From: Kagunavirus LM08P2
DNA: 42,999 bases
Sequence record: OZ035738.1
Reading direction: 5' to 3' (one strand)
Within the stretch, counting starts at the first letter, position 1. Every line of letters starts with the position of its first letter. The position numbers were made by a program, and so were the translations under genes. Below are positions 4,649 through 37,857 of this stretch, one piece after another. The notes beneath the pieces are model-generated. The model was not told the origin of the DNA, did not search any database, and saw nothing but the letters and a program-made list of their open reading frames with translations.

Positions 4649-4677
4649 ATAGTACCCTATTATATTGGTGTGTGCAA
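4649..4677 (-). promoter_or_regulatory. Sigma70-like promoter, family 2 (TTGCAC-N17-TACTAT)
   Basis: Read on minus strand: TTGCACACACCAATATAATAGGGTACTAT; near-identical copies at 13790-13818(-), 36393-36421(+), 37829-37857(+). Confidence 0.5.
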
Positions 4678-4690
4678 ACTATTTATTTAC

Positions 4691-4743
4691 GTATTCCAGT
4701 TATTCCACTCAATTGTAAATGTTGGAATAAACTATTCGAATAG
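4691..4743. promoter_or_regulatory. Cluster of TGGAATA/TATTCCA repeats upstream of promoter at 4744
   Basis: TATTCCA at 4692-4698 and 4701-4707 with inverted partner TGGAATA at 4723-4729; similar TGGAATA pair at 5485-5512. Confidence 0.4.
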
Positions 4744-4772
4744 TTGACTTTTCACTAAAAATGTGCTAAGCT
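4744..4772 (+). promoter_or_regulatory. Promoter TTGACT-N17-TAAGCT (TG-extended), copy 1
   Basis: TTGACTTTTCACTAAAAATGTGCTAAGCT; nearly identical sequence at 36084-36112. Confidence 0.5.
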
Positions 4773-4779
4773 CCACCTG

Positions 4780-4978
4780 AGCTTGTGAAGTATGAACAAG
4801 CGACCGCGGCGCGGGCAGGTAACGGAGCGGGACGTAAGTCCTGAGTGTAGTTACGCTGACGCGTTCGGAAGGGCCATACTCTATTGCTTGTGTAAAAAGT
4901 AACTGGTTTACTGAGATTACGCCGTTTCTATGTTTAAATGATAAGGACTAGCGCCCCGCTTTATGGCGGGGCTTTACT
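4780..4978 (+). ncRNA. Candidate structured noncoding RNA / leader element, copy 1
   Basis: About 110 nt downstream of the promoter is conserved with the copy at 36119-36230; contains hairpins with compensatory differences between copies; no ORF conserved between copies; ends at a GC-rich hairpin plus T-run at 4951-4978. Confidence 0.45.
4951..4978 (+). terminator. Intrinsic terminator
   Basis: GCGCCCCGC-TTTATG-GCGGGGC followed by TTTACTT, immediately upstream of the spanin RBS. Confidence 0.55.
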
Positions 4979-4996
4979 TATCGAGAAAGGAGAAAC

Positions 4997-5383
4997 ATGA
5001 ATCTTAAAGCAACTGTCGTAGCAGGAGCATGTTTCATCATCCTGTTATACACGCACGGCTACTATCAATACCGCAGCGGCTGGAACGGAGGCAGGGCTAA
5101 TCTAGTTTCGCAGCAACAGCAGAAAGCACAGGCTGAGTTAGCGAAGAAAACACAACGGCAGCAGCAGGACGAATCAAAGGCCGCCGCCGCTGACAACGAA
5201 GGCAAGACGAAATCAGAGGTGATTACCCGTGAAGTCGTTAAGTACATTAAAACGCCTGGCCGCAGCGTGTGCACTTTCGACGATGCTCGCGTCCTGCTCA
5301 AGTCCCGCGCCGTCGCAAACGCCAATTCCATCCCCGGATACGACGATGATGCAGCCGCCATGCAAACTGGCCGCGCCAAGTAG
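4997..5383 (+). CDS. i-spanin (Rz-like inner membrane spanin)
   Basis: 128 aa; N-terminal hydrophobic TMD (ATVVAGACFIILLY) then Q/A/K/E-rich predicted coiled coil; overlapped by a lipoprotein ORF in another frame; strong SD AAAGGAGAAA. Confidence 0.55.
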   Translation: MNLKATVVAGACFIILLYTHGYYQYRSGWNGGRANLVSQQQQKAQAELAKKTQRQQQDESKAAAADNEGKTKSEVITREVVKYIKTPGRSVCTFDDARVLLKSRAVANANSIPGYDDDAAAMQTGRAK

Positions 5384-5492
5384 CGATGCCGATGAGGATT
5401 TAGCCATTGACGTTCAGAACACAGAATGTGTACGGCAACTGCGTCTGAAAGTGTTCATGTTGCAGGATTACGTGAGGAATATTCTGGAATAG
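5229..5492 (+). CDS. o-spanin (Rz1-like outer membrane lipoprotein)
   Basis: 87 aa from GTG start with SD GAGGTGA; signal peptide ending in lipobox LASC; proline-rich mature region; begins inside the i-spanin gene in the +1 frame and extends past its stop. Confidence 0.55.
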   Translation: MKSLSTLKRLAAACALSTMLASCSSPAPSQTPIPSPDTTMMQPPCKLAAPSSDADEDLAIDVQNTECVRQLRLKVFMLQDYVRNILE

Positions 5493-5526
5493 TTGCCTTG
5501 CATGTTGGAATAATTTATTCTTGACA
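5475..5526. promoter_or_regulatory. TGGAATA repeat cluster and promoter-like region upstream of scaffold/capsid genes
   Basis: GAATATTC palindrome 5477-5484, TGGAATA at 5485-5491 and 5506-5512, TTGACA at 5521-5526; shares TGTTGGAATAA...TATTC...TTGAC with 4720-4749. Confidence 0.35.
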
Positions 5527-5574
5527 TGTAAATCCGGGTGGCCCGGGTTCCAACGTCCAGGGGACATACTGACT

Positions 5575-6276
5575 ATGAATCGTTTTTTACGTTATCCGTT
5601 CCAGGAAGAAGCTGGGGCAGAAGATAAAGCTGGTGGCGGTGACGCGCCGAAAATGTTCACCGCTGAAGAAGTTCAGGCGCTGATTGAGAAAGAAGTTGCC
5701 GGGCTTAAGGCCAATCAGGAAGCATTGCTGGCGGAGAAGAAAGAAGCCGCTCGTAAAGCAAAAGAGGCCGAAGAAGAACGGCAGCGCGCGCACCAGGAGG
5801 CGTTAAAAGCCGCTGGTAAGATGGACGAGTTCGAAAAGACGATTCGTAGCCAGTATGACCCGGTGTTAGCCGAGAAAGATGGTCGCATCTCCAAAATGGC
5901 AGAGCGTATCCTCGGCAGTGAACGTAAAGCGGTGTTAGGCTCTTTCGCGGGCGACTTTATTACCCCGGAAGCAGTAGACATTCTTGCTCCGTTCGTTAAG
6001 ACTGAGTTCGAAGGCGATGACGTGGTTACTAAGTTTGTTGGTGCGGATGGCAACGTAATCACGACTGACCCGGAACAGTTCCGCAAATACCTGCGTGAAC
6101 ACAAAGCATTTTCGCATTTGATTAAAGCAAATGCAGCTTCCGGCGGCGGGGCTTCCGGTAGCAAAGGCGGCGGGGCCGCACCAGCGTTTAAAGACATGAG
6201 TGAAGCGGAGCGTTTAGCTCTGTATAAATCGAACCCTGCCGAATTTGAACGGCAACTTAAAGCCCTGAGGAAATAA
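5575..6276 (+). CDS. Scaffolding protein (putative)
   Basis: ORF track start 5521 is TTG; first ATG at 5575. Ala/Glu/Lys-rich, predicted coiled coil (EKKEAARKAKEAEEERQRAHQEALKAAGK), immediately upstream of major capsid gene. Confidence 0.5.
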   Translation: MNRFLRYPFQEEAGAEDKAGGGDAPKMFTAEEVQALIEKEVAGLKANQEALLAEKKEAARKAKEAEEERQRAHQEALKAAGKMDEFEKTIRSQYDPVLAEKDGRISKMAERILGSERKAVLGSFAGDFITPEAVDILAPFVKTEFEGDDVVTKFVGADGNVITTDPEQFRKYLREHKAFSHLIKANAASGGGASGSKGGGAAPAFKDMSEAERLALYKSNPAEFERQLKALRK

Positions 6277-6278
6277 TA

Positions 6279-7328
6279 ATGGCAATTACCACTATCGGCG
6301 ATATCGTAACTGGCAACATCCCGGTCCTGGCGTCTTATATGACCGAGGACCCGGTAGAAAAAACCGCGTTCTTTCAGTCAGGTATTTTGACCCCGACTCC
6401 GTACGCTGCCGAGATTGCTCGCGGCCCGTCCAACGTCGCTAACATTCCTTTCTGGAAAGCGATTGATACCTCTATCGAGCCTAACTACTCGAACGACGTA
6501 TACCAGGACATCGCCACCCCGCGTAACGTGCAGACCGGTGAGATGATGGCCCGCGTTGCATACCTGAACGAAGGTTTCGGTCAGGCGGACCTGACTGTCG
6601 AACTGACCAGCCAGAACCCGCTGCAATCTGTGGCTTCTCGCCTGGATAACTTCTGGCAGCGCCAGGCACAACGCCGTCTTATTGCTACCGCGCTCGGTCT
6701 GTACAATGACAACGTAGCCGCTACCGACGCATACCACGAGCAGAACGACATGGTAATCGACGTGTCTGCTACTCTGGGCTTCGATGCGGGCGCGTTCATC
6801 GACGCTACCCAGACTATGGGTGATGCGCTGATTGGCAACGGCGGTGAAGTGCTGGGTGCTATCGCGATGCACAGCTTCGTATATGCGCAGGCCCGTAAGC
6901 AGCAGCTTATTGACTTCATCAAAGACGCTGACAACGACACCATGTTTGCCACCTACCAGGGCTACCGCGTGATTGTTGACGACAGCATGACCGTAGTCGG
7001 TACCGGCCCTAGCCGTAAGTTCATCTCCATCATCTTCGGCAACGGCGCTATCGGTTACGGTGAAGGTAATCCGTCCAACCCGCTGGAATACGAACGTGAA
7101 GCGTCTCGCGGTAACGGCGGCGGCGTAGAAACCCTGTGGACCCGTAAGACCTGGTTGCTGCACCCACTGGGCTACAGCTTCACCAGCGCAGTAATCACCG
7201 GCAATGGCACCGAGACTACACCGCGCTCCGCTTCCTGGCAGGACCTGGCGAACGCCTCCAACTGGAACCGTGTTGTTGAACGTAAGCATGTACCGATTGC
7301 CTTCCTGGTAACTGGTGTCGGGGCTTAA
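6279..7328 (+). CDS. Major capsid protein
   Basis: 349-aa ORF after scaffold gene with SD GAGGAAA; followed by a strong intrinsic terminator, typical of a highly expressed capsid gene. Confidence 0.7.
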   Translation: MAITTIGDIVTGNIPVLASYMTEDPVEKTAFFQSGILTPTPYAAEIARGPSNVANIPFWKAIDTSIEPNYSNDVYQDIATPRNVQTGEMMARVAYLNEGFGQADLTVELTSQNPLQSVASRLDNFWQRQAQRRLIATALGLYNDNVAATDAYHEQNDMVIDVSATLGFDAGAFIDATQTMGDALIGNGGEVLGAIAMHSFVYAQARKQQLIDFIKDADNDTMFATYQGYRVIVDDSMTVVGTGPSRKFISIIFGNGAIGYGEGNPSNPLEYEREASRGNGGGVETLWTRKTWLLHPLGYSFTSAVITGNGTETTPRSASWQDLANASNWNRVVERKHVPIAFLVTGVGA

Positions 7329-7342
7329 GGTTAAGCTATAAT

Positions 7343-7372
7343 CGAGAGGGACTTCGGTCCCTCTTTTCATTT
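7343..7372 (+). terminator. Intrinsic terminator after major capsid gene
   Basis: GAGAGGGAC-TTCG-GTCCCTCTTTTCATTT. Confidence 0.7.
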
Positions 7373-7387
7373 ACTAAGAGGTAAATT

Positions 7388-7687
7388 ATGGCTAAGACCG
7401 GAAAAGGCTTGCCCCGCAGCCTTAAGAACGTTGACTTTGGCGACCTGGATATTCCCGTTACGCCTGCTACTACCAGCGTAGTTGGCGGGGTTAAAAAGTC
7501 GGCTACTGTAGCTGCTCCCGCGGCCATTACCGCTGCTGCCGGAGTTCAGGCCGCCGCAGACCCGACTAAGGCAGAGTTTGATGCGCTTGTAGCGGAGTAC
7601 AATAAACTCCGAACCGATGTTACCGCGCTGCGCGCTACCGTAGCGAACCTGTTAACCGCGCTTAAAAACGCAGGAACTGTAAGCTAA
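7388..7687 (+). CDS. Hypothetical Ala-rich structural protein
   Basis: 99-aa ORF with SD; position in head module. Confidence 0.4.
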   Translation: MAKTGKGLPRSLKNVDFGDLDIPVTPATTSVVGGVKKSATVAAPAAITAAAGVQAAADPTKAEFDALVAEYNKLRTDVTALRATVANLLTALKNAGTVS

Positions 7688-7699
7688 AGGAGCTTAAAA

Positions 7700-8053
7700 A
7701 TGGTTGATGTAATTAAACGTCGCATTACTGGTGTCTCCGACGACTCCCCGGCCGATGGTCAGGTAGAAATCGACATGGCAAATATCTCACCGGCATCTTT
7801 TTCTACCGCGCTTGCGGCTACCACCGCTGTTACCGCACCCGCGGCATTGACTCTTACCGTAGTTGTTACCGGCGGGCTGGCTCCTTATTCCTATCAGTGG
7901 TTCAAGGATAACAACGCCATCGCAGGCGCTACCGCGGCTACGTACACCAAAGCCACCACTGTCGCATCTACCGATTCTGGTACGTATAAAGTGGTTGTCC
8001 AGGATGTATATGGTAATATTATCTCCAGTAGCTCCGTAGTAACGGTATCTTAA
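7700..8053 (+). CDS. Ig-like domain protein
   Basis: 117 aa; YSYQWFKDNNAIAGA...GTYKVVVQD pattern similar to the Ig-like C-terminus of the 3887-4348 product. Confidence 0.45.
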   Translation: MVDVIKRRITGVSDDSPADGQVEIDMANISPASFSTALAATTAVTAPAALTLTVVVTGGLAPYSYQWFKDNNAIAGATAATYTKATTVASTDSGTYKVVVQDVYGNIISSSSVVTVS

Positions 8054-8089
8054 TACAACGGCCCTTCGGGGCCGTAATAAGGAAAGGTC

Positions 8090-8269
8090 ATGGCAGATAA
8101 TTATGTAATCCGCGAAAAGTACACCCACGTTGGTGTTGTTGACGGTCAGGTAATGCCTGTTCGCGGTGTTGTAGAACCGGATGAGCTTGTGGCAACGCAA
8201 CCAGATAACGAAGAAGCGCACAACAACGGCGGTGGTACTAAACGTCGTCGCCGTAAGTCAGAGGAATAA
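8090..8269 (+). CDS. Small hypothetical protein (59 aa) with basic C-terminus
   Basis: Hand-translated ORF below the 60-aa track cutoff; SD AAGGAAAGG upstream of ATG 8090; ends GGGTKRRRRKSEE. Confidence 0.35.
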   Translation: MADNYVIREKYTHVGVVDGQVMPVRGVVEPDELVATQPDNEEAHNNGGGTKRRRRKSEE

Positions 8270-8272
8270 TTT

Positions 8273-8785
8273 ATGCCTCTAATCGTGGAAACGGGTGAAA
8301 TCGTCCCTAATGCTGACAGTTACGTTAGTCTGGCTGACGCCCGCGCGTTAGCGGCTAATTATGGCCTGGAGTTGCCCGCGGATGATACCGCCGCAGAGGT
8401 GGCCTTGCGTAATGGTGCAACGTATGTTGGGTTAGCAGAACCCCAGATGTACGGTCGTCGTGTATCTGCCGAACAGTCACTGGCATATCCTCGCACTGGT
8501 GTAACGTTGAATGGTTTCCCAGTAGCTAACAATGTCATCCCGAAGCAGGTGATTCTTGCGCAGGTAATCGCCGCCGTTACCTATGGCGCGGGTACTGAGG
8601 TGCGGGCTAACTCTGACGGACGTTTGGTACAGACCGAGCGCGTAGAGGCCACAGTAACCGTCACCTACTTCAACAACGGCAACAGCGGTGCCACGACCGC
8701 GATTACCGCTGCGGATGACGCCTTACGCCCGTTACTGTGCGGCGGTCTTAACAATGGCTTCTCGTTTAATGTGCGCCGGGGGTAA
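8273..8785 (+). CDS. Hypothetical head/neck protein
   Basis: 170-aa ORF in head-to-tail joining region; function by position only. Confidence 0.4.
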   Translation: MPLIVETGEIVPNADSYVSLADARALAANYGLELPADDTAAEVALRNGATYVGLAEPQMYGRRVSAEQSLAYPRTGVTLNGFPVANNVIPKQVILAQVIAAVTYGAGTEVRANSDGRLVQTERVEATVTVTYFNNGNSGATTAITAADDALRPLLCGGLNNGFSFNVRRG

Positions 8786-8787
8786 AA

Positions 8788-9402
8788 ATGGCGAAGACTA
8801 AAACAGAGATGTTTACTCTTATCGGTGCAAATCTCCCCGATAATACCACTGGACTTATTACCCCCGCAGCGTTGCGCGAGGTAATGACACAGATGGCTGA
8901 CTCGCCTATCTATGCCACTCCGGGGGTTAAAGAGGTTGAAGTTCTCCGTGCCGCGTCGACAGTAGCACAAGCACCATCCGCAGTGGACACAGCATTGCAA
9001 ATAACTTTCGGTGCTGCCCAGGGAAGCGCGTCTAACCCGGTAATGATTAATGCTGCAGGGCTGGTTACATTCAACGCCGCGGGTAACTACGCCGTTCGCA
9101 TCAAGTTACAGGCGGGGCGTACGGGTGCTAGTGGGACATCAATCCTTTTATCACGCATTCTTCTTAACGGCGCTCAGTACGGCTCACCCGCGGCCACGAA
9201 ACTGGTAAGCGCGGATATTACAATCCCGATTGAATCCCGCGTCGTTATTAACCCCACCGCAGGCCAGACGTTTGCCGTTCAGATTATGCGGGATAGCGCC
9301 GGAAGCAACTACGGTGGCGTATACCCGCAAGCGGCTACTGTAACCGCATGGGGTACAGCACCATCCGCATTACTGGTTATCTCGAGACTGGAGGCAGCGT
9401 AA
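8788..9402 (+). CDS. Hypothetical structural protein
   Basis: 204-aa ORF tightly packed with neighbours. Confidence 0.4.
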   Translation: MAKTKTEMFTLIGANLPDNTTGLITPAALREVMTQMADSPIYATPGVKEVEVLRAASTVAQAPSAVDTALQITFGAAQGSASNPVMINAAGLVTFNAAGNYAVRIKLQAGRTGASGTSILLSRILLNGAQYGSPAATKLVSADITIPIESRVVINPTAGQTFAVQIMRDSAGSNYGGVYPQAATVTAWGTAPSALLVISRLEAA

Positions 9403-9761
9403 TGAGCACCGCTTTCAGTAAACGTATGCAAGGCGTTGGTACACGCCTTCTAACCAAATTCGGTAGCACGGTATCTCTGATTCGCGCCGGCTCGAAAGTG
9501 TGGGATGAAGTTCTCGGCGAGTACGTCTGGTCCGACGATGAAGTGTTGCCGTTGAAAGCTGTTCCGGTTCCGGTAAACGCGGGCCTGGTGAACGGTACGA
9601 CGATTCAGGCTGGCGACATGATTGTTAAAGCCGATTACAGCGTCGTTCCTAAGATGGAAGACAAGGTACAATTCGGCGGCGAGCAATGGTCGGTTGTGGC
9701 TATCGAGAAGAAGATGGTTAACGATGATGTCGTGGCATACTTTATTCAGGTGAGAAAATGA
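9402..9761 (+). CDS. Hypothetical neck protein
   Basis: ATG at 9402 overlaps upstream stop (TAATG); ORF track start 9348 is an upstream extension. Confidence 0.4.
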   Translation: MSTAFSKRMQGVGTRLLTKFGSTVSLIRAGSKVWDEVLGEYVWSDDEVLPLKAVPVPVNAGLVNGTTIQAGDMIVKADYSVVPKMEDKVQFGGEQWSVVAIEKKMVNDDVVAYFIQVRK

Positions 9762-10153
9762 GTTTCGCGCTTGATGTCTCTAAGTTCGTGGAAAAAGCGA
9801 AGAAGAACCCCGAGAAGGTGATGCGTCAGGTGTCTATCAAGCTGTTTTCCGCTATTATAAAGGCGACGCCAGTTGATACCGGTCGTGCGAGAAATAATTG
9901 GTTTGCGTCTGGCAGTACTCCGTCACAGGAAACTACCACCTACGGTGCACCGCAAGGAACGGCTACCATACAGCGTGTTACTGCGGTTATAAACACCGCT
10001 ACAGACTGGAGTGAGTTCACGCTGACAAATAACCTGCCGTATATACAGCGGCTGGAGTATGGCTGGTCACAACAGGCGCCAGCTGGGGTTGTCAGGACTA
10101 ATGTGTCTCGCTTCCAGCAACTCATTAACGAAGAAGCCAACAAGGTGAAATGA
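9758..10153 (+). CDS. HK97 gp10-like neck/tail completion protein
   Basis: 131 aa; ATPVDTGRARNNWF motif resembles the DTGxLRNS signature of the HK97 gp10 family. Confidence 0.5.
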   Translation: MSFALDVSKFVEKAKKNPEKVMRQVSIKLFSAIIKATPVDTGRARNNWFASGSTPSQETTTYGAPQGTATIQRVTAVINTATDWSEFTLTNNLPYIQRLEYGWSQQAPAGVVRTNVSRFQQLINEEANKVK

Positions 10154-10566
10154 TGGGCTACTTTGAGGACTTAACCAAAGCGTTCGATGTGCCGCTGGTA
10201 GCCTTCGGAACCGCCAACGGCATCAAGGTTGCGCTTGAAAACATCGACGCGCCGACATCAACCGATACGCCGTATCTGGCGAGTTACATGTTGCTGGCGG
10301 ATACGGAACAGGCTGATTTGTTCTTCACGGAACAACGCGCCGGTGTTTATCAGGTCGACATTAACTACGCATCGGTGAAAGGTAGCGCGCCAATCAATAA
10401 AATGGCAGACTTACTTAACACGGCGTTTAAAGCAGGTAAGTCATTTTCACGTAACGACATCTGCGCCGAGGTTCAATCGGTAAGCCTGGGGCCGCTGATT
10501 GTAGAAAACGGATGGGCCAAAAGACCATTGTCAATTAACTTTATTGCATTCACCAAGAGGCTGTGA
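10150..10566 (+). CDS. Hypothetical tail completion protein
   Basis: 138-aa ORF overlapping neighbours, between neck and major tail genes. Confidence 0.4.
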   Translation: MMGYFEDLTKAFDVPLVAFGTANGIKVALENIDAPTSTDTPYLASYMLLADTEQADLFFTEQRAGVYQVDINYASVKGSAPINKMADLLNTAFKAGKSFSRNDICAEVQSVSLGPLIVENGWAKRPLSINFIAFTKRL

Positions 10567-11737: not shown

Positions 11738-11768
11738 CTAAGGCCCCTTTCGGGGCCTTTTTCTTACT
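11738..11768. terminator. Bidirectional intrinsic terminator
   Basis: AAGGCCCC-TTTC-GGGGCCTTTTTCTT with A-rich 5' flank; sits between + major tail gene and - cassette. Confidence 0.7.
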
Positions 11769-13761: not shown

Positions 13762-13789
13762 AATTATTTCCTCAGTAAGTTACAAGTGA

Positions 13790-13818
13790 ATAGTACCCTA
13801 TTATATTGGGGTGTGCAA
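13790..13818 (-). promoter_or_regulatory. Sigma70-like promoter, family 2
   Basis: On minus strand TTGCACACCCCAATATAATAGGGTACTAT; drives the 13761-to-11764 cassette. Confidence 0.5.
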
Positions 13819-23805: not shown

Positions 23806-23832
23806 TAAGGCCCCATTTGGGGCCTTTTCTCT
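23806..23832. terminator. Bidirectional intrinsic terminator
   Basis: AAGGCCCC-ATTT-GGGGCCTTTTCTCT with A-run upstream; between convergent modules. Confidence 0.7.
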
Positions 23833-26548: not shown

Positions 26549-26863
26549 TTATAATTCCTTATATTGTTGGGGTATGTGCTTACTATAATAGTCTGCTATT
26601 AGGGTGTCAATCTGTTTTATCGAACCAACGACAAAAACATTCGCGCCACGTTTACGCATCCGCTCGTGCTCGCGTAACTGGTGTGGGTCTGGCTTCGTGC
26701 TTTCATCTTTCTTAACCTCAACGAACCAGATGATGCCGCCGGGGAGGATTACCAACAGGTCGGGCGCTCCGTTTCGGCCCTCATACACTATCTTACGAAC
26801 GAGGCCCCCCAGGGCCTCGAATCGGTCTTTCGCGTATTTCTGTACGCGGCCCTCTTTAGTCAT
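26549..26863 (-). CDS. VRR-NUC domain nuclease
   Basis: PD-(D/E)XK-like core GAPDLLVILPGGIIWFVEVKK; start uncertain (ATG 26863 or TTG 26878). Confidence 0.55.
   Translation of the reverse strand: MTKEGRVQKYAKDRFEALGGLVRKIVYEGRNGAPDLLVILPGGIIWFVEVKKDESTKPDPHQLREHERMRKRGANVFVVGSIKQIDTLIADYYSKHIPQQYKEL
26582..26610 (-). promoter_or_regulatory. Sigma70-like promoter, family 1 (TTGACA-N17-TATAGT)
   Basis: On minus strand TTGACACCCTAATAGCAGACTATTATAGT; lies inside the 3' end of the VRR-NUC gene. Confidence 0.5.
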
Positions 26864-27094
26864 GGGCGTAGAACCCAAGTAAGGAAAGCCCCTCCTAGAA
26901 CGGCAACACCGACAAACTTAAAGAACAGGCCATAACAGAACATCGTGGCTATTCCCGCCCCGAGTAACAGTGCAAGCATGGTTACTATTGTCCAAAATAC
27001 AAACATTGTCATAATACGCACCCCTCACGTTTCGTGTGCTCAATCCCGCAGCGCGGACAGATTCGACAGTCTTCTTCATAGAACCAGTAGATTT

Positions 27095-29504: not shown

Positions 29505-29532
29505 GTAAAAAGGCCCAATGAAGGGCCTTAGT
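29505..29532 (-). terminator. Intrinsic terminator (minus strand)
   Basis: On minus strand AAGGCCC-TTCATT-GGGCCTTTTTACT, downstream of SSB-like gene. Confidence 0.55.
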
Positions 29533-29548
29533 TAAATTGATTCAGATA

Positions 29549-30178: not shown

Positions 30179-30245
30179 CTTGATTTCTCGCTTTTCAGTT
30201 TATATTTCAAAGTTTACTCCGGGAGCTGCCCGGCCAGTGATTAGA

Positions 30246-30274
30246 ACTATAATAGCTAACTATTCAGGTGTCAA
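30246..30274 (-). promoter_or_regulatory. Sigma70-like promoter, family 1
   Basis: On minus strand TTGACACCTGAATAGTTAGCTATTATAGT upstream of SSB-like gene. Confidence 0.5.
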
Positions 30275-30522
30275 ACCTTCCAGCCAGTTATTTTCTCAAC
30301 TATCTCGATATATTTGCTAGGCCATTTCATGCTGTTTATGAATCGAATCGCCCGTGTCTTCCACGATTTATCACTCAGGATGGCTTCGATGTCGCGTGTT
30401 CGCATTAGGCATATCGTAAGGCACGCTAAGATAAATGTCGGCATCATTAGCGGCAACATAAGAACCCAGAAAATAGTACACGCTACAAATCCGCCAAGCA
30501 CCCTGAACATTTTACGAATCAT
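30271..30522 (-). CDS. Small membrane protein (83 aa)
   Basis: ATG at 30522 with SD GAGGAGG; two hydrophobic helices; track start 30552 is an upstream extension. Confidence 0.45.
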   Translation of the reverse strand: MIRKMFRVLGGFVACTIFWVLMLPLMMPTFILACLTICLMRTRDIEAILSDKSWKTRAIRFINSMKWPSKYIEIVEKITGWKV

Positions 30523-31823
30523 TCTAAATCCTCCTCTGTCACCTGATTCCACTCAGGCCGTTTATCATCTGCCGTTGCGACACAAGGCGCTCCCGGCTTG
30601 CGTGTGATTAGTTTTTCGAGAATAGGCCACGCATCAGTATTTTTGAACGCTGCTTCTGCCTCTTTCGGAGACACAAGAGACGCCTTAAACAGCATTTTCC
30701 GGTCTATTTCATAAAATTCTGCGGCGTCTATTACCTCCTTCACATCCTTCCACGCACGATTACCCGGGCGGCCTTCTACCAGTTTGTACCCCGGCACTTT
30801 CTTACCGGAATGCAAAGCGGCGGCCATCGCTTTCTCAACCTTGTCGATGTGCTGGCGCAACAACGGCAACTTCTCATACTCAACTACGAGTTGCTCCGGC
30901 GTCAGTTCCAGCGCAAAGTCGTCTTCCAGTTCTTCCGCCCGCACCGCGTTAACTGTCTTTGTACGCGCGGCGCACTGTTCGGAGAACCGACACCACTGAC
31001 AACCATCGACCGACGGCCTGAAGTCCGACGCTTTCAGATTCTTCTTGCCACGGAAATAGGCATCAAGAGCTAACAGTGCACGTTTCTGAGCAAACTTAGC
31101 GAACAGTTCCAGGCCTTCAACCGAGATGTCCCACTCTGACGCGCCACCAGCGTACGGCTGGAAGATTACCAGACGAATAACGGTGATGTTATAGCGTCTC
31201 TTGAGCCTGCGATAAACACCGAGAGCGTAAAGCATAAGCTGCTTGTTTTCTTTCGCTTCGACACGATGCCGCCCAGTTTTCAGGTCTCCGATAATTAGCA
31301 TGTGCTCGTCGGTGTTAGCCAGTTCCTGAACGGCAACAAGGTCAGCGGTTCCGAATGTCTCTAAACCATCCTCCTTACCTTCTTCACTCTCAGCAGGTAC
31401 TTTGTATCCCGGATGCAATACTTCAGTAAGATTGACACGCATCTCGGGCTTGGCGTAAGTCGCTACATCAATAATCGCTTTGCAGTAGTCGGTGTACTTG
31501 CGCACCTGCTCAATCATATCCGCCGTAATCAGTACCGCGCCTTTCACCTGGCTGATTAGTGCCTTAATCGGGCCCTTACCCTCATCCAGAACATAGGCCC
31601 CGACTTCACGCTCTAACGGCAACGCAGTTCCGCGGATATAGGCGTTGAGATGTACCTCAGCTATGGTGTGCATAGCCGTACCTGATACCGCGGCTTTACC
31701 CGACGTGTTAGGGATATCTTTCTCACAGACCAGCGATGCACTGCACGTCAGCCACTTTTTAGCCCCCGACGGCGACAGTAAGGCGTGTACATCGTTATTG
31801 CCGCCACGTTCCTTTAAAATCAT
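30519..31823 (-). CDS. PD-(D/E)XK exonuclease, Cas4/RecB-like with C-terminal Cys cluster
   Basis: N-terminal LSPSGAKKWLTC and C-terminal CQWCRFSEQC (Fe-S-type cysteines); likely start ATG 31823 with SD GGGAGA (track start 31838 is GTG). Confidence 0.65.
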   Translation of the reverse strand: MILKERGGNNDVHALLSPSGAKKWLTCSASLVCEKDIPNTSGKAAVSGTAMHTIAEVHLNAYIRGTALPLEREVGAYVLDEGKGPIKALISQVKGAVLITADMIEQVRKYTDYCKAIIDVATYAKPEMRVNLTEVLHPGYKVPAESEEGKEDGLETFGTADLVAVQELANTDEHMLIIGDLKTGRHRVEAKENKQLMLYALGVYRRLKRRYNITVIRLVIFQPYAGGASEWDISVEGLELFAKFAQKRALLALDAYFRGKKNLKASDFRPSVDGCQWCRFSEQCAARTKTVNAVRAEELEDDFALELTPEQLVVEYEKLPLLRQHIDKVEKAMAAALHSGKKVPGYKLVEGRPGNRAWKDVKEVIDAAEFYEIDRKMLFKASLVSPKEAEAAFKNTDAWPILEKLITRKPGAPCVATADDKRPEWNQVTEEDLE

Positions 31824-32292: not shown

Positions 32293-32347
32293 ATTTCCGA
32301 CCCTCAGTTTGGTGCCCTCACGTATGAGGGCACCATAAGTTAAGTAG

Positions 32348-32836
32348 TTATTCTTCTTCGAAATACTTGTTCTTGATTGCCGTCAGGCGTTCCAGGTATT
32401 CGGCCAGGTCTTCGTCTTTAATCGCGGCAATCTTCATCTTCTTACCGGTGAACTCTTCCAGCAGTTCATCGGAATCATCGCACGCGGCATCGCTCGGACC
32501 TTCATTAATCGCATCGTCGATAGCCTGAATCTGATCACGAAGAGACTGGTAATCGACTTCTTCTTTCTCTTCTTGCGGCTCTGGCGTTGGCTCCTCTACT
32601 TTAGGTTTACGCGGCTTGCGTTTCGGCTTCTCTTCTTCTGCCGGTTTAGTGTCGACGAGGTCTTCACCTTCTACCGTGATTTCTTTTGTCGCTTCTTTCG
32701 CAACAACATCACGAACACTATCTGCGATGTTTGCATCTGCCTTAAGTTCATACACAGGTTTTTTCGCGCTATTCGCAGCAATCAGTTCATGCGCAACTAC
32801 GAAACGTTCCAGTAATTTTAAGAATTGGTCTAACAT
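32348..32836 (-). CDS. Highly acidic protein with central basic/Pro-rich linker
   Basis: 162 aa; D/E-rich termini with KPKRKPRKPK segment; first gene downstream of promoter 32868-32897; SD GAGGAG. Confidence 0.45.
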   Translation of the reverse strand: MLDQFLKLLERFVVAHELIAANSAKKPVYELKADANIADSVRDVVAKEATKEITVEGEDLVDTKPAEEEKPKRKPRKPKVEEPTPEPQEEKEEVDYQSLRDQIQAIDDAINEGPSDAACDDSDELLEEFTGKKMKIAAIKDEDLAEYLERLTAIKNKYFEEE

Positions 32837-32867
32837 TTGTTTCTCTCCTCTCGTTTGGTATGGGCTA

Positions 32868-32897
32868 ACTATAATAGCGAACTATTCATGTTGTCAA
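32868..32897 (-). promoter_or_regulatory. Sigma70-like promoter, family 1
   Basis: On minus strand TTGACAACATGAATAGTTCGCTATTATAGT (18-bp spacer). Confidence 0.5.
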
Positions 32898-32961
32898 TGG
32901 GCTTTCCTAAAATAATTAATATGGTACTATTCACATATAAACTGACTAAGGAGTAATTGAC

Positions 32962-33177
32962 ATGCAACCATCTGAACTAGGCATCCGTGTAGAACAACGC
33001 CGTAAAGAACTCGGCATCTCCCAGCGCCGTCTGGCTGTCCTGGCCGGTGTTTCCCAGGGCGCAATTAACCAGCTTGCGCTCGGGGTAACTCAGGACGTCC
33101 GCCCGGCAACGCTGTTTAAACTGGCGGAAGTGCTGGAAGTAGACGCCAAGTGGCTGGCGTTCGGTGAAGGGGCTTAA
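32962..33177 (+). CDS. XRE-family HTH transcriptional regulator (Cro/CI-like)
   Basis: 71 aa; ELGISQRRLAVLAGVSQGAINQL is a canonical XRE helix-turn-helix; strong SD AAGGAG; opposite strand to surrounding operon. Confidence 0.7.
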   Translation: MQPSELGIRVEQRRKELGISQRRLAVLAGVSQGAINQLALGVTQDVRPATLFKLAEVLEVDAKWLAFGEGA

Positions 33178-33194
33178 CGCCCCTTTCTTTTTCC

Positions 33195-35462
33195 CTATTC
33201 CAAATCTTCCTCAGTAACCACCAGCATTTCATTCGGCTCGTATATCGTCTTCGGAATCTTGTTATCCGTTATCCTGGTGTTAAGTCTGTAACGGCCAGGG
33301 ATTATCTGATTGTTTTCGTCGGTACCAGGCACAAGATACCCGGCCTCAACCATTTTCTTAATCTTCCCACGCTCTATGGCTTCTTTGGAGTTGAACGCCT
33401 TTGCGTTGGGGTCGGACTGAGCGAGCTTATTCGCTGCGGCCACCGTGATACCTTCATTGCCGTTGTAGGTTCCTTCTGCCAGTTCAAACGCTGCCAGTAT
33501 CGTGGCTTCCGAACTGTTGACGGCGTTCTCTACGGTTTTACGTACGTTTTCTTTACCTTCCTTTGTCAGCCCTTCTTCCCGCTCTTTCTCCTCGTCAGTT
33601 TTGAACGGCTCGAAGCCCCACGGCATCAGTACAAGCGCCTTGTGCGGTTCAGGCAGGTCGAGGTTTACGATTGTGCCGTATTCCTCTGTGCTACCCAGGA
33701 ACTCAACCGCGCGATACTCTTTCGGCGGCGGGGCTTCACGGAACTGTACTGACTCCAACACCATACCAACCGTCTTCTGTTGAGGCCCGTGCTTAAATTT
33801 AGAGTGGTATACGTTTATCTGGCGGTCGGTAGCGCGTTCGATTGTCAGCTCCACGTCGACGCCCGCATACAGCGCCCCACTGCCACGGGCCTTCTTTCCA
33901 CCCTTCGGCGTATGGTGGACAACGCCTACCGCAGCTTTAGTCGCATCACGTACTTCTTTCAGGATGGCAATGACTTTACCCATGCCGATTGCCGTCGATG
34001 AACTGTTCTCGTCGAACTTATCAATCGTCAGGGCCAGCGTCTGGTTAAGGGTGTCGAATGCGACCATGCCAATTGGCTCGTCACCCGCAGTTTCACGCAT
34101 TAACTTAATCAGGTTTTTCAGTTTTCCGACTTCGCCCATGTCGATAACATGTACATAATCTTTACCTTCCTCGCCATATTTAGCCGCGAGTGCATCTATA
34201 CGTGTGCGTGTAGCTGCGCCTCCCTCACCGTCGATATAGAAATGGTGGCAACGCTGGGTATCCGCCCCGGCAAACCGGTATCCGGCGGCGCTCAGGTACA
34301 TCATCCCCAGCGTATAGAACGATTTGTACGTGCCGGATTCCCCAACAATATCCCAGATACAATCTGACGGCATGTACCCCTCAACGACGAAATCAGCCTT
34401 TACCGGTTCCAGTAACTCGTCCTCCTCTGAGCCATCATCGTCTTCCAGGTCGTCGAGGCTGCATGAGACAGATTCACGCGCGCCCCAGCCGATAGCCTCG
34501 GCCACTTCACTGAACGGCAACCCGGTCGCATCACACGCGTATTTCCACACCTCTTTCGGTGACATGCCTTCGGTTGCCGTAATGTCGGTGTCGTGAATCA
34601 TGGTTACGTTCGGCGCTTCGTATCCCTCGCGCGGGAAACATAACAGGAAGTCGTCCGGGCGTGGTGTCGGGTCGCTGTAGTTTTCTGCGTGTTCTGGCGT
34701 AGCTGGCATCTTAAGGCCACGCGGCGTCATGATGCCGCCGTACTCGAATGCCAGTGCTTCAAACGCATCCGTAAACGCGGTGCGTAGTTCTTCCGGTATC
34801 TGGTAATCCGATGCACTGCTAACGTCAACGGCTGGTACACCTTCCAGTAACTCTTCCGGGTCAATCAGGTCGTTACGGCGCGACCAGATAACGGTAGAGC
34901 CAACCGGCGGCAGGTACATCGGTTGCGACAGAGTGAACCCGCTGCGGTCAGCGCCCATACCTTTGAAGAAGTGCTCCAGCAATCCGAGACGAACGCGGAT
35001 GATGTCACCACCTTCAACCGGACGCCCCAGCGGCATGACGACGCGAAAGCGCGGGGACTCATCGGCATGTGATGCTGTGGTGTAGAGGCACATCGCCTGG
35101 CGGCTGCGTTTAACCAGTTGCACCGCTTCCTGATACTCTTCCGTCGTTGCGCTGTCGAAGTCCAGATACGCCAGTGACGATTTGCTTACAGACGCGTCAC
35201 AGCGATAGAAGAAGCCTTTACGCGCTTGCTTAAAGTCACCGGTTTCCGGGTCTTTTACGGTGCTGTGCGTCGAGTCGCACGCGGCAGTGATATAGCCCGG
35301 TGCGGTCTTCGGATTAATTCCGTCTCGAACGGCATCGAGCGGCTGGAGTAGCTCTTTCAGGTCGCCCAGTGTCGCCGTGTGTGTTGTTCTGACGTTTATA
35401 TCCTTTTTCTCCGCCCGCGCGTTGCGACGTGACCACGAGTAGGATAAAATTACATCGGACAT
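33195..35462 (-). CDS. Primase-polymerase (AEP-like) fused to RecA-fold helicase
   Basis: 755 aa; N-terminal LAYLDFD and SHAD motifs resemble AEP prim-pol catalytic motifs; central GESGTYKS (Walker A) and VHHTPK. Confidence 0.7.
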   Translation of the reverse strand: MSDVILSYSWSRRNARAEKKDINVRTTHTATLGDLKELLQPLDAVRDGINPKTAPGYITAACDSTHSTVKDPETGDFKQARKGFFYRCDASVSKSSLAYLDFDSATTEEYQEAVQLVKRSRQAMCLYTTASHADESPRFRVVMPLGRPVEGGDIIRVRLGLLEHFFKGMGADRSGFTLSQPMYLPPVGSTVIWSRRNDLIDPEELLEGVPAVDVSSASDYQIPEELRTAFTDAFEALAFEYGGIMTPRGLKMPATPEHAENYSDPTPRPDDFLLCFPREGYEAPNVTMIHDTDITATEGMSPKEVWKYACDATGLPFSEVAEAIGWGARESVSCSLDDLEDDDGSEEDELLEPVKADFVVEGYMPSDCIWDIVGESGTYKSFYTLGMMYLSAAGYRFAGADTQRCHHFYIDGEGGAATRTRIDALAAKYGEEGKDYVHVIDMGEVGKLKNLIKLMRETAGDEPIGMVAFDTLNQTLALTIDKFDENSSSTAIGMGKVIAILKEVRDATKAAVGVVHHTPKGGKKARGSGALYAGVDVELTIERATDRQINVYHSKFKHGPQQKTVGMVLESVQFREAPPPKEYRAVEFLGSTEEYGTIVNLDLPEPHKALVLMPWGFEPFKTDEEKEREEGLTKEGKENVRKTVENAVNSSEATILAAFELAEGTYNGNEGITVAAANKLAQSDPNAKAFNSKEAIERGKIKKMVEAGYLVPGTDENNQIIPGRYRLNTRITDNKIPKTIYEPNEMLVVTEEDLE

Positions 35463-35520
35463 GTTGTATTTCCTTCAGCAAGTAATTTGGCCTCGGCGTT
35501 CACCGCGTCGGGGCTTTCTT

Positions 35521-35811
35521 TTATCTATTAGCCAGACATTCCATCAAATGCGCGTACTTACGATAATAATCTACGACAATCTCATCACCGAAATACTGAT
35601 AAACGTACGCTAAGTGGTCAGAGACATCGATGGAAGCCGACATTGTGCTGAGTCTTCGGAGACTAATCAACTGTAATTCTTCTGTAACGCAAAACGGTGA
35701 ATAAGAGTCCAGCTTACAAGAAACGTTAAAGCACAACGCATATTCGCCTTGCACTAAATAAACCATATAAGCACTGTCATTTTCTTTATCGTGGAAAATT
35801 ACACCTTTCAT
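35521..35811 (-). CDS. Hypothetical protein (96 aa)
   Basis: ORF with ATGA coupling to upstream HTH gene. Confidence 0.4.
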   Translation of the reverse strand: MKGVIFHDKENDSAYMVYLVQGEYALCFNVSCKLDSYSPFCVTEELQLISLRRLSTMSASIDVSDHLAYVYQYFGDEIVVDYYRKYAHLMECLANR

Positions 35812-35976
35812 TTCACGTTCTCCTTAATCCACGCCTCAACTTTATTACGGTCAAATGTACCAGGTAAACGGCGACCCATTACTTTAACGCTGCAATCAGG
35901 AAACTTTCCACTCTTAATCCAGTTATTGATTGTCTGGCGGGTGACTCCGATTAATTCTGCAACTTCATTGATAGTC
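35808..35976 (-). CDS. Small HTH DNA-binding protein (AlpA/excisionase-like fold)
   Basis: ATG at 35976 with SD AGGAGAG; MTINEVAELIGVTRQTINNWIKSGKFP is a typical phage HTH; first gene of leftward early operon; track start 36068 is an upstream extension. Confidence 0.55.
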
Positions 35977-36005
35977 ATTTCGCGCTCTCCTGTGTAAGAT
36001 GTATC

Positions 36006-36034
36006 GAAGTATAAGGCGGTAACTTTGTAAAAGC
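36006..36034 (-). promoter_or_regulatory. Leftward early promoter TTGCTT-N17-TATACT
   Basis: Minus-strand reading TTGCTTTTACAAAGTTACCGCCTTATACT; about 30 nt upstream of HTH gene. Confidence 0.45.
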
Positions 36035-36056
36035 AACCAAAACTGAACACAAAGTT
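36017..36056. promoter_or_regulatory. Operator-like perfect inverted repeat GTAACTTTGT-N20-ACAAAGTTAC
   Basis: 10-bp perfect inverted repeat arms at 36017-36026 and 36047-36056 bracketing the -35 of the leftward promoter, between divergent promoters. Confidence 0.5.
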
Positions 36057-36083
36057 ACTAAGATACAAAAGATGCTACTGGTA

Positions 36084-36112
36084 TTGACTTTTACTTAAAA
36101 ATATGCTAAGCT
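36084..36112 (+). promoter_or_regulatory. Promoter TTGACT-N17-TAAGCT (TG-extended), copy 2
   Basis: TTGACTTTTACTTAAAAATATGCTAAGCT, nearly identical to 4744-4772. Confidence 0.5.
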
Positions 36113-36118
36113 TCACTG

Positions 36119-36353
36119 AGCTTGTGAGATATCGCAAGCGACCGCGGAGCGGCAGGGAACGCAACGCGTGCCATTAGGCACTTGAGTGTAGTTCCGCTGG
36201 CGCTTTCGGAAGGGCCAAAGTCTATTGTTAATCCCGCCTAAATACCCAAGTCACTGATAATTAAAAGTTTCTATAGTTGCCGTAAGCAAGGTGGAGAGTA
36301 CTTCACTCCGCTGGGGTGGGCTAACGCCCACCCACTGCGTTGCGTACTCTTTT
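36119..36353 (+). ncRNA. Candidate structured noncoding RNA / leader element, copy 2
   Basis: Conserved with 4780-4886 over about 110 nt; no ORF; GC-rich hairpin GGGTGGGC-TAAC-GCCCACCC at 36313-36333 enclosed by GAGAGTAC/GTACTCT and followed by TTTT. Confidence 0.45.
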
Positions 36354-36392
36354 AAGAAACGAAAGAATCACAACGGCAACGTAACTTTTCTC

Positions 36393-36421
36393 TTGCACAC
36401 ACCAACATAATAGGATACTAT
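36393..36421 (+). promoter_or_regulatory. Sigma70-like promoter, family 2
   Basis: TTGCACACACCAACATAATAGGATACTAT upstream of 36456 gene. Confidence 0.5.
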
Positions 36422-36455
36422 TCACTTATAGAAACGAGACAGAGGAGTGAGGGTT

Positions 36456-36644
36456 ATGTTTAAACGTGGTCAGTTGGTTAAAGCTGTAAATAGCAATTAT
36501 TTCATTGTTGAAAGCGAGTCTGCAGTTTTTCCGGGGGCTTATAGGGTAAGTTTTCTCGGGGAAAGATTAGGAGCAATAACCTGGTTCCGTGGAGATGAGC
36601 TAACACTCATCGGCAACAATTTTAAATTCAAAGGGGCGAAGTGA
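36456..36644 (+). CDS. Hypothetical early protein
   Basis: ATG with SD GAGGAG (track start 36447 is GTG). Confidence 0.4.
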   Translation: MFKRGQLVKAVNSNYFIVESESAVFPGAYRVSFLGERLGAITWFRGDELTLIGNNFKFKGAK

Positions 36645-36898
36645 TGGAAGAATTAATTTGTATTGAATCCAGCCAGGATGTGCAGGATTGGTTTGTTAAA
36701 GGTAACAGATATTCGTCCGGAGTATATTCCGACGGCCGTCGATATGTTTTAGACGAAGACGGTGATGAATGGGATTTAAATGACGATGTAAGAGAAACTT
36801 TAACCGTTAGCAGGGTCAATGCTGTTTCTGCCTCATTCACAACGGCATCGAATCATGATGCTCGTGCCGACGACTCTGAGGGAGGTTGCCGTGAATAA
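36644..36898 (+). CDS. Acidic hypothetical protein
   Basis: 84 aa, Asp/Glu-rich; TGATG overlap coupling. Confidence 0.4.
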   Translation: MEELICIESSQDVQDWFVKGNRYSSGVYSDGRRYVLDEDGDEWDLNDDVRETLTVSRVNAVSASFTTASNHDARADDSEGGCRE

Positions 36899-36946
36899 TT
36901 ACCCGTTTATTTTAATAGTCAGCGCCGTTTATGTGGTGCATGCGTT

Positions 36947-37180
36947 ATGGGGGCTGGTATGAGAAAACACATAATAAAGGTAGACCATCTGGACGGAGTT
37001 AAATTGCCGACGAATAAAGTAGAAACGTGGTGTGGGGCCACTCCATCGTACGGTGAATGGCTGTTCCAGGATGCTCAACACGCCTTAATTGCTGTAGAAA
37101 ACGGATTCAGGCAAGAGCCTTGCGCACAGTGTTTATCCGCTATCGCCCAGATCGCAACTCAGGCGTTAAGTGAGGACTAA
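36947..37180 (+). CDS. Hypothetical protein
   Basis: 77-aa ORF; alternative start ATG 36959. Confidence 0.35.
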   Translation: MGAGMRKHIIKVDHLDGVKLPTNKVETWCGATPSYGEWLFQDAQHALIAVENGFRQEPCAQCLSAIAQIATQALSED

Positions 37181-37183
37181 GTT

Positions 37184-37327
37184 ATGAGAGAAGCATTCGA
37201 ACGGTGGGCCGTCGTCGAGGGTCTGCCGGTTAACAAGGGTTCGAAGAAAGAGTACCTGAACGTTAAGACGCGTCTCGCGTGGCGGGCGTGGAAAGCTGGT
37301 GTGTTGTTTATCGCGAATCGGAGGTGA
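37184..37327 (+). CDS. Small hypothetical protein (47 aa)
   Basis: Hand-translated MREAFERWAVVEGLPVNKGSKKEYLNVKTRLAWRAWKAGVLFIANRR; SD GAGGAC. Confidence 0.35.
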   Translation: MREAFERWAVVEGLPVNKGSKKEYLNVKTRLAWRAWKAGVLFIANRR

Positions 37328-37330
37328 TTT

Positions 37331-37516
37331 ATGGGTGAGTGGATTAAGTGTAGTGAGCGGATGCCTGAGCCTTATGAATACGTTCTTGTAACTGATTGTT
37401 TTGTTGGCTGTGAGGTTATGCGTGTTAATTCAGATGGCTACTGGGGGCCTGCAAAGAGTTTATATCACGGTGATATAACGCACTGGATGCCGTTACCTGA
37501 GCCGCCGGAGGTGTGA
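37331..37516 (+). CDS. DUF551-like protein
   Basis: 61 aa; EWIKCSERMPE...VLV...ITHWMPLPEPP matches the DUF551 pattern common in enterobacterial phages. Confidence 0.6.
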   Translation: MGEWIKCSERMPEPYEYVLVTDCFVGCEVMRVNSDGYWGPAKSLYHGDITHWMPLPEPPEV

Positions 37517-37650
37517 TGTTCAATAGTTTGGGATTTTACTGAGTGACTTACGCTGCTACACAGCAGCGTACAACTTTAGATTAGTGTCGTCAAAAAGCGA
37601 CACTTCCACCAAACGAAACAATAGGAGCGACTATTGCAGGAGACGCAACA

Positions 37651-37821
37651 ATGAAACTGAATGACATCGTAACCTGGACTGGTAGAAACGGAGAAAAGCG
37701 ATTCGGGCTTATTGTTGCGTCAGACGGCAACAAGTACCGTGTTATGCGATGGCGTCAGTGGGCACGACGCCCGAGGTACTACTGGATTCGTGGCGAACGA
37801 TTATCTTTAAAACACCAATAA
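37651..37821 (+). CDS. Small hypothetical protein (56 aa)
   Basis: Hand-translated ORF with SD GCAGGAG. Confidence 0.35.
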   Translation: MKLNDIVTWTGRNGEKRFGLIVASDGNKYRVMRWRQWARRPRYYWIRGERLSLKHQ

Positions 37822-37828
37822 AATTTAC

Positions 37829-37857
37829 TTGCACACACAGATATAATAGACTACTAT
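37829..37857 (+). promoter_or_regulatory. Sigma70-like promoter, family 2
   Basis: TTGCACACACAGATATAATAGACTACTAT upstream of 37887 gene. Confidence 0.5.

Follow-up and report, generated by a model that had tools for sequence, protein, structure and literature searches.

The operators of bacteriophage 434 are 14 base pairs (bp) long; their outer bases are conserved, whereas the central 4 bp make no contact with protein. We describe here a 14-bp dyad of comparable build, AATAG-N4-CTATT, that lies in promoters of Kagunavirus LM08P2 (sequence record OZ035738.1, analysed as one stretch of 42,999 nucleotides (nt) that is referred to below as the window), and weigh the case for its being the operator of a small 434 Cro-like protein made by the same phage. 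The likeness to the 434 Cro/CI system extends to the candidate regulator, with its 71 amino acids (aa), its HTH_3 five-helix fold and 434 Cro as its best PDB match both by sequence and by predicted structure, to the arrangement of two 5-bp half-sites about a variable 4-bp centre (5+4+5), and to the placing of the putative operators over -35/-10 elements, one of them at the regulator's own promoter. There are differences as well. The half-site is AATAG here and ACAAT/G in 434, single operators are dispersed at eight or more promoters in place of two tandem triplets (OR1-3, OL1-3), and the present phage is strictly virulent, having no CI partner, integrase or lysogeny module; binding, moreover, is predicted only.

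The C2 and Cro proteins of P22 and the Cro protein of lambda resemble the system proposed below in that a small repressor made early lowers the early promoters in lytic growth, and P22 C2 is itself among the PDB matches of the 71-aa protein. However, P22 operators measure 18 bp, the fold of lambda Cro is different, and in both phages these components belong to a bistable lysis/lysogeny switch that is absent here. LexA with its SOS boxes and the C proteins of restriction-modification systems offer a further parallel. There too each promoter has a single dyad that covers the -35 and -10 elements or lies between them, the response is graded by operator quality, and the site before the regulator gene is a weaker one; Foldseek searches with the 71-aa protein list C.AhdI and C.BclI among its structural neighbours. 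LexA, in contrast, is not of the HTH_3 type, and C proteins control only their own operon, through paired C-boxes. Closest of all are two earlier accounts of the repeat itself. A 2023 paper on fBC-Eco01, also a Kagunavirus, lists seven 'phage RNAP promoters' obtained with PHIRE, with consensus tgAATAGTa-ccTATTat-T, including one upstream of the 'repressor' Gp52; its PP5 is the counterpart of the eighth dyad considered below (PMC9825357), and seven PHIRE promoters are likewise given in the Golestan paper (PMC7203180). Motif and copy number are the same as those found here, but the sites are credited there to a polymerase of the phage, for which these genomes have no annotated gene, with no mention of sigma-70 hexamers, of two architectures, of dyad symmetry or of a link to a Cro-like gene. 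The repeat is already known, therefore.

A preliminary description of the window had pointed to seven promoter-like sites in two families, all of which were found at the coordinates given there, far above chance. Family 1, TTGACA-N17/18-TATAGT with the dyad within the spacer, has three sites, all on the minus strand: F1a at 26582..26610 (-35 TTGACA 26610-26605, dyad 26600-26587, -10 TATAGT 26587-26582), F1b at 30246..30274 (-35 30274-30269, dyad 30264-30251, -10 30251-30246) and F1c at 32868..32897, where the spacer is 18 bp (-35 32897-32892, dyad 32886-32873, -10 32873-32868). Family 2, TTGCAC-N17-TACTAT with the dyad across the -10 element, has four: on the minus strand F2a at 4646..4677 (-35 TTGCAC 4677-4672, dyad AATAG-GGTA-CTATT 4661-4648, -10 TACTAT 4654-4649) and F2b at 13787..13818 (-35 13818-13813, dyad 13802-13789, -10 13795-13790), and on the plus strand F2c at 36393..36424 (-35 36393-36398, dyad 36409-36422, -10 36416-36421) and F2d at 37829..37860 (-35 37829-37834, dyad 37845-37858, -10 37852-37857). 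The 32-mer TTGCACACnCCAAnATAATAGGnTACTATTCA is present without mismatch at F2a, F2b and F2c and with 3 mismatches at F2d, and has 0 matches in 100 shuffles. The family 1 trio, with spacers of 17 or 18 bp, are the top three of a scan against the sigma-70 consensus (11/12) and the only sites in the window with at least 11/12 matches (first-order Markov resamples averaged 0.58 such sites and never had more than 3); family 2 scores 8/12, its -35 hexamer TTGCAC agreeing with TTGACA at 3/6 positions, and lies under the threshold of the scan. An all-against-all comparison of 20-mers, with at least 16/20 identical on either strand, returned just two multi-copy families in the window, the present motif (8 members, including one at 32915) and GGCCCC terminator hairpins. 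Downstream of each of these eight sites, at 25-60 nt and in the same direction, there is a start codon preceded by a ribosome-binding site of the GGAG type, and from their orientation and placement before genes both families look like host sigma-70-type promoters. Promoters on the opposite strand, with the TATAAT of the family 2 spacer as a -10 element or with plus-strand promoters at the family 1 sites, were rejected as a -35 element is absent at any workable distance.

The exact palindrome AATAG-N4-CTATT occurs 7 times in the window, and these occurrences are the seven sites of both families, as compared with an expectation of 0.01 from shuffled sequences and 0.036 from a base-composition model. 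In an unbiased tally of all gapped 5-mer palindromes it ranks first, with 7/7 copies in promoters. The layouts of the two families, TTGACA-(4-5 nt)-AATAG-N4-CTAT|TATAGT and TTGCAC-(10 nt)-AATAG-nn|TA-CTAT|T, differ in that the dyad begins 4-5 bp past the -35 hexamer in the former and 10 bp past it in the latter, so that, counted from the inferred start sites, it extends from about -25 to about -12 in family 1 and from about -19 to about -6 in family 2. Since its register to the -35 and -10 elements varies by promoter class, the dyad is not a fixed polymerase-recognition element; the same dyad at two offsets fits a single dimeric DNA-binding factor acting on two promoter architectures. Orientation leads to the same view. 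The plus-strand sequence of the family 1 sites agrees with the 20-mer of family 2, TATAATAG-N4-CTATTCA, and the direction of this common 20-mer with respect to transcription is opposite in the two families, as expected of a symmetric protein site and not of an element recognized by polymerase. The suggestion made at the outset, that conservation outside the hexamers points to recognition by an extra factor, is supported. The accompanying proposal of two regulons set by two different spacer sequences fares less well, because the conserved core of the spacer is one and the same 14-bp dyad in both families, and judged from the sequences there are probably not two regulons. It is possible, nevertheless, that the families differ in intrinsic strength (11/12 vs 8/12) and in sensitivity to the factor, giving two kinetic classes.

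An eighth dyad, AATAT-GGTA-CTATT, with one mismatch, is found on the plus strand at 32918-32931, in the promoter of a helix-turn-helix (HTH) gene and about 30 nt 5' of its open reading frame (ORF). This promoter is of the extended -10 type, with -10 TACTAT at 32925-32930 and TG at 32922-32923, and the mismatched base of the dyad is the T of that TG. The gene (32962..33177, plus strand) is a single-gene unit followed by a terminator at 33166-33186 and codes for the candidate regulator, a 71-aa HTH_3/XRE protein (Pfam HTH_3, E 2.3e-12) that falls in PHROG transcriptional repressor/regulator families. Against PDB sequences its best match is 434 Cro (E 5.4e-7, 38-41% identity over residues 6-68/71), and with an AlphaFold2 model (pLDDT 84, five helices) Foldseek again places 434 Cro (2cro) at the top, TM 0.73-0.79, followed by the 434 repressor, HipB, SinR, C proteins and P22 C2. 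An XRE homologue is present in every Guernseyvirinae genome examined, 562 phage records in all have a homologue of the protein, and the first glutamine of the recognition helix is invariant in an alignment of four clade representatives. In 434 Cro this helix-start glutamine is Q28, which contacts the outermost adenine of the operator; most of the clades studied here likewise have an A as the outermost half-site base, and by analogy the invariant glutamine would contact it. In all of the clades examined the dyad before the regulator gene itself is a degenerate one. A possible weak ninth operator, ACTAG-TTGA-CTATT, also with one mismatch, occurs at 40523..40536 on the plus strand, overlapping the -35 element of a promoter TTGACT-N17-TATATT at 40528-40556 (plus strand), and at the same position SETP3 has AATAG-TTGA-CTAGT, with the mismatch in the opposite half. 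While the promoter motifs of the preliminary description were confirmed, the palindrome common to both families, its eighth copy, and the link to the adjoining 434-Cro-like gene and its degenerate site had been missed and are added here. Neither the window nor annotated relatives contain a second XRE/CI gene or an integrase, and tandem operators of the OR1-3 type are absent, only single operators being found; the two dyads of the divergent region around the HTH gene, 45 bp apart, belong to separate promoters.

The comparison with other phages took in 64 viral contigs, each with a gene for a protein related to the HTH protein. Complete genomes of two other Kagunaviruses have 7 perfect dyads each and Jerseyvirus SETP3 has 5, in the extended form TAATAG-N4-CTATTA, and in all three the dyad is again the most over-represented gapped palindrome. 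The 36 Kagunavirus sequences (the window, the two complete genomes and 33 fetched loci) contain 149 distinct perfect-dyad sites with at least 12 different central sequences. An offset of 4-5 bp is seen for 82 of these, with -35 TTGAC[AGT] and -10 TATAGT or TATATT, and an offset of 10 bp for 59, with TTGCAC or TTGCGC and TACTAT, leaving 1 site at offset 6 and 7 with no detectable promoter. In Jerseyvirus the dyad lies 4, 7, 10 or 11 bp from the -35 element. Alignments of orthologous promoters from 26-47 related loci, chosen independently of the palindrome, show half-site columns that are invariant or nearly so, and variation in the central 4 bp and in the linker to the -35 hexamer.

Further from the window the half-sites themselves change, being AATAG/AATAC in phiEap-2, mostly AATAC in contig L051 and ATTAG/ATTAC/AATAC in Cornellvirus (VSiA, St162), and all of these dyads, which share A-W-T-A-S half-sites, lie in promoter spacers or -10 regions. 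Contigs L059 and L063, syntenic and Guernseyvirinae-like, with a DNA polymerase 60-65% and a gp2.5-like protein 56-58% identical to those of the window, carry TTAGC-N2-GCTAA in place of the AATAG dyad, including upstream of their own HTH gene. The exchange can be read off at the promoter of the gp2.5-like gene, which is TTGACT-ctact-TTAGCgaGCTAA-TATAGT in L059/L063 vs TTGACA-cctg-AATAGttagCTATT-ATAGT in the window. Joint replacement of a cis element at orthologous promoters implies that the factor involved diverges along with the phage, and the difference between Jerseyvirus (AATAG) and Cornellvirus (ATTAG/ATTAC), both of which infect Salmonella, argues against a host factor. Taken together, these comparisons of sequence point to a factor that is phage-encoded. 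An unrelated phage in the set, Klebsiella phage klb_E (contig L006), has an HTH protein 44% identical to that of the window and, at 33293-33382, about 700 bp from the HTH gene, another palindrome (TGCCATCAGATGGCA-like) repeated four times in tandem, which fits a protein family paired with diverse operators.

The window is the genome of a member of Kagunavirus (Guernseyvirinae), virulent siphoviruses of E. coli, whose replication region is 96.5% identical to that of Kagunavirus LM08P1 and 95% to that of Escherichia phage AV104; a megablast search with this region matched 451 phage records, the majority of them Guernseyvirinae from Salmonella (Jerseyvirus) and Escherichia (Kagunavirus). According to the gene map, taken from the AV104 annotation, structural genes occupy 30-23802 on the plus strand, broken up by two minus-strand cassettes, the replication cluster runs on the minus strand from 23965 to about 36000, and small early genes, lysis genes and nin-like genes follow on the plus strand from 36447 onward. 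The five proteins longer than 600 aa are the tape measure, tail fibre, tailspike, DNA polymerase I and primase/helicase. The AV104 annotation includes no integrase, and the phage is strictly virulent (PMC7203180, PMC9825357). Usable data on start sites or transcriptomes of Guernseyvirinae or Jerseyvirus were not found in a literature search.

Set against this map, the family 1 promoters stand before replication-module genes and partly in upstream coding sequence, as originally proposed. F1a is within the 3' end of the ORF 26549-26878, ahead of a gene for an 84-aa protein (26547-26293); the -35 element of F1b overlaps the stop codon of the ORF 30271-30552, and the next gene, 30178-29549, encodes a gp2.5-like single-stranded DNA (ssDNA)-binding protein; F1c is intergenic and divergent from the HTH gene, the next gene being 32836-32348, for an acidic protein of 162 aa. 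The family 2 promoters, again in keeping with the initial assignment, precede early small genes and both of the opposite-strand inserts. On the minus strand F2a serves an 81-aa ORF (4622-4377) in a unit that closes at a bidirectional terminator, 4352-4372, and F2b a cassette (13761-11764) with a phrog_14165 protein, a metallophosphoesterase-like protein and two small ORFs that ends at the terminator 11740-11759. On the plus strand F2c is followed by small early genes from 36447, and F2d by genes from 37887 as far as the lysis genes.

On the whole we regard it as probable, from the sequences and from the predicted fold, that the dyad is the operator of the phage's own 434 Cro-like 71-aa protein, such that a single repressor regulon embraces two promoter architectures. 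What is directly seen is the dyad, with its positions, its conservation and its joint change across clades, as well as the family and fold of the protein. Upon infection host sigma-70 polymerase would fire all eight promoters, and with them the small early genes, the replication genes, the opposite-strand accessory genes and the regulator, the last transcribed from its own extended -10 promoter. A Cro-like dimer on the dyad would then exclude RNA polymerase or block open-complex formation, by occlusion of the -10 element in family 2 and at the regulator promoter and of the spacer/-10 edge in family 1, and early and middle transcription would be turned down as the regulator builds up. The weaker, one-mismatch operator of the regulator would be filled last, giving autoregulation, and promoters that have no dyad, such as TTGACT-N17-TAAGCT before the structural genes (4744-4772), would escape.

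Several observations weigh against this scheme. The start sites, the timing, the binding of protein to dyad and the repression are steps that we infer. The gene after F1c is named '13.88 kDa late protein' in relatives, and if it is truly late a simple early shut-off of family 1 does not fit. The operators are single and isolated, unlike those of 434 or lambda with their tandem OR1-3 sets and CI partner. The primase/helicase operon apparently starts at a dyad-less promoter on the minus strand, TTGCTT-N17-TATACT at ~36010-36040, which would leave part of early transcription outside control. The scheme does not account for two further features, namely that ACACCAA, which reads ACC-AA in Jerseyvirus, is additionally conserved in the spacer of family 2, and a consistent asymmetry of the flanks, with TGAATAG on one side and ATAATAG on the other. 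Finally, Kagunavirus and Jerseyvirus have an identical core dyad in spite of different recognition helices (VSQGAINQL and VSQSLITHL, respectively), and Cornellvirus half-sites are heterogeneous, so that the co-change of protein and operator is suggestive and not clean.

The most closely related alternatives retain a DNA-binding protein on the dyad and alter either what it does or which protein it is. That the 434-Cro-like protein activates or fine-tunes some promoters, producing two temporal classes, by helping the weak -35 of family 2 or by coupling the divergent F1c and HTH-gene promoters, would account for the poor -35 hexamer of family 2 and for the 'late' name of the gene after F1c, and the divergent dyads are indeed situated ~58-64 bp upstream of each other's inferred start. 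However, the family 2 dyad covers the -10 element, where known activators fail to work, spacer activators of the MerR type require spacers of 19-20 bp and not 17-18 bp, and family 1, near consensus already, should not need help; we consider such activation rather unlikely. Much the same low probability attaches to another protein as the binder. The one other HTH protein found, a MerR-excisionase-like HTH_17 protein (Pfam HTH_17, E 1e-9) encoded on the minus strand at 35808-35978, is a DNA-binding protein and stands at the start of the leftward early operon, and a host regulator might equally be proposed in so far as the identity of the binder is deduced and not observed. Yet no homologue of HTH_17 was detected in the complete genomes of Cornellvirus and phiEap-2, whose promoters still have dyads, the XRE protein being present in all, and a host factor sits poorly with phages that share Salmonella as host and have different dyads and with dyads that change at orthologous promoters of syntenic clades.

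Other explanations do away with such a protein altogether. A sceptic might see in the sites strong AT-rich promoters of recent duplication and in the palindrome a by-product of -10-like sequence, TATAAT being nearly symmetric; the right half-site does overlap the -10 hexamer in all classes, the flank ATAGT/TATAAT adds symmetry, and family 2 copies are near-identical across 32-48 bp. This becomes quite improbable when it is considered that the left half-site AATAG has no sigma-70 role and is nonetheless conserved equally to the right one, that half-sites are kept across genera as the centre drifts, that the internal spacing of the dyad is constant despite a 6-bp shift relative to the -35 element, that L059/L063 have a different dyad genome-wide, and that 7 copies are observed where chance predicts 0.01-0.04. 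The published reading, by which the 20-mers are promoters of a phage-specified RNA polymerase or sigma factor, draws on the fact that PHIRE returns this motif as the main repeated 20-mer, in 7 copies in fBC-Eco01 (PMC9825357) and seven in Golestan (PMC7203180). No RNA polymerase or sigma factor is annotated in AV104 or fFiEco02, however, and no sigma/RNA polymerase domain is present among 30 early and middle proteins scanned with Pfam; every site has sigma-70 hexamers spaced 17-18 bp; and the motif is a dyad, with a register and an orientation to transcription that differ between families. We give this reading very little credence.

Most of the short leaders that follow the dyad-bearing promoters have in common the sequence (A)AACGAG(A)GGAG ahead of the start codon, as at 4620-4645, 32838-32860, 36425-36446 and 37861-37886, and it recurs after the 40528 promoter (cgacaacgagaacggag), which suggests a common strong ribosome-binding module, copied together with the promoters. 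The terminators are alike too. Near-identical bidirectional hairpins AAGGCCCC-N4-GGGGCCTT at 4352-4372, 11740-11759 and 23807-23826 (also 29506-29533) mark the borders where plus- and minus-strand transcription units meet; with these hairpins and a family 2 promoter, each accessory cassette on the opposite strand forms a unit complete in itself. In the 5' untranslated region between F1b and the gene of the gp2.5-like ssDNA-binding protein there is a hairpin, CACTGGCCGGGCAGCTCCCGGAGTAAACT (30211-30239, minus strand), near-identical in Kagunavirus, Jerseyvirus, phiEap-2 and Cornellvirus and with compensatory changes in L059/L063, that may be a translational operator for autoregulation of that protein.

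The gene driven by F1c (32348-32836, minus strand) encodes a very acidic protein of the phrog_3127 family, with no Pfam match, in which a conserved N-terminal helix, a hypervariable linker with indels, a KPKRKPRK patch and an invariant C-terminal domain can be distinguished. Its name in relatives is inherited from phage MB78. As an alternative regulator it was rejected; with no Pfam domain, an acidic composition and a variable linker it is unlike a sequence-specific DNA binder. One of the 1990s papers on MB78, a Jersey-like phage, reportedly describes a strong promoter that has no -35 consensus and 'interacts with a phage specific factor', which is a possible lead.

A second promoter of the type found before the structural operon (TTGACT-N17-TAAGCT, 4744-4772) lies at 36084-36112, both on the plus strand. 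Each belongs to a non-coding unit present in two copies, 4744-4972 and 36084-36340 (plus strand), that consists of the dyad-less promoter, a conserved RNA of ~120 nt (4775-4896 in copy A, the one before the structural operon, and 36114-36237) and a terminator-like hairpin (4953-4972 in copy A). RNAalifold with 10 variants gives 26 pairs for this RNA, 6 of them with compensatory changes, and a covariance model finds it at the equivalent place in SETP3 (E 6e-8) and, at a borderline E of 0.95, in phiEap-2. A search of the whole window against Rfam returned nothing at gathering thresholds, and the matches at 4700-5000 were no better than chance level. We see in this RNA a candidate cis-acting leader, with antitermination or attenuation of the late genes as a possible role. 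Directly 5' of the -35 of the late-operon promoter, in the region 4693-4738 (plus strand), there is a different dyad, GGAATA-AAC-TATTCG at 4724-4738, that is kept in SETP3 (GGAATACTTTATTC) and phiEap-2 (GGAATAAATTATTCC), where the -35 elements are poor (GTAGAC and GTGGAC); phiEap-2 has in addition four perfect copies of GAATAAnTTATTC at 11.5-12.7 kb. Across the whole window GGAATAA is not enriched (6 observed vs 5 expected), and only the local dyad before the late promoter is conserved, which has the look of a site bound by an activator of the late genes.

Few phages are isolated for therapy and for food biocontrol as often as Kagunaviruses and Jerseyviruses, and their repeated sites are mislabelled in the literature; the reading as host-type promoters with a Cro-type operator would correct these annotations. 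It yields a regulatory map of eight or nine putative operators, one candidate regulator and a set of dyad-less promoters, and compact promoter/operator parts that could be used in engineering these phages. A broader proposal, that the early/middle programme of Guernseyvirinae as a whole runs through one Cro-like protein and dispersed single operators that change along with it, the family 2 promoter being a portable module, is unlikely as it stands. If it were true, a newly acquired opposite-strand cassette with a family 2 promoter would join the same clock, and the protein might block family 2 at the -10 element and merely tune or delay family 1, thereby creating temporal classes. The phage would be another case of a virulent phage that retains a Cro-like regulator without the lysogeny switch, a useful addition and not a surprising one.

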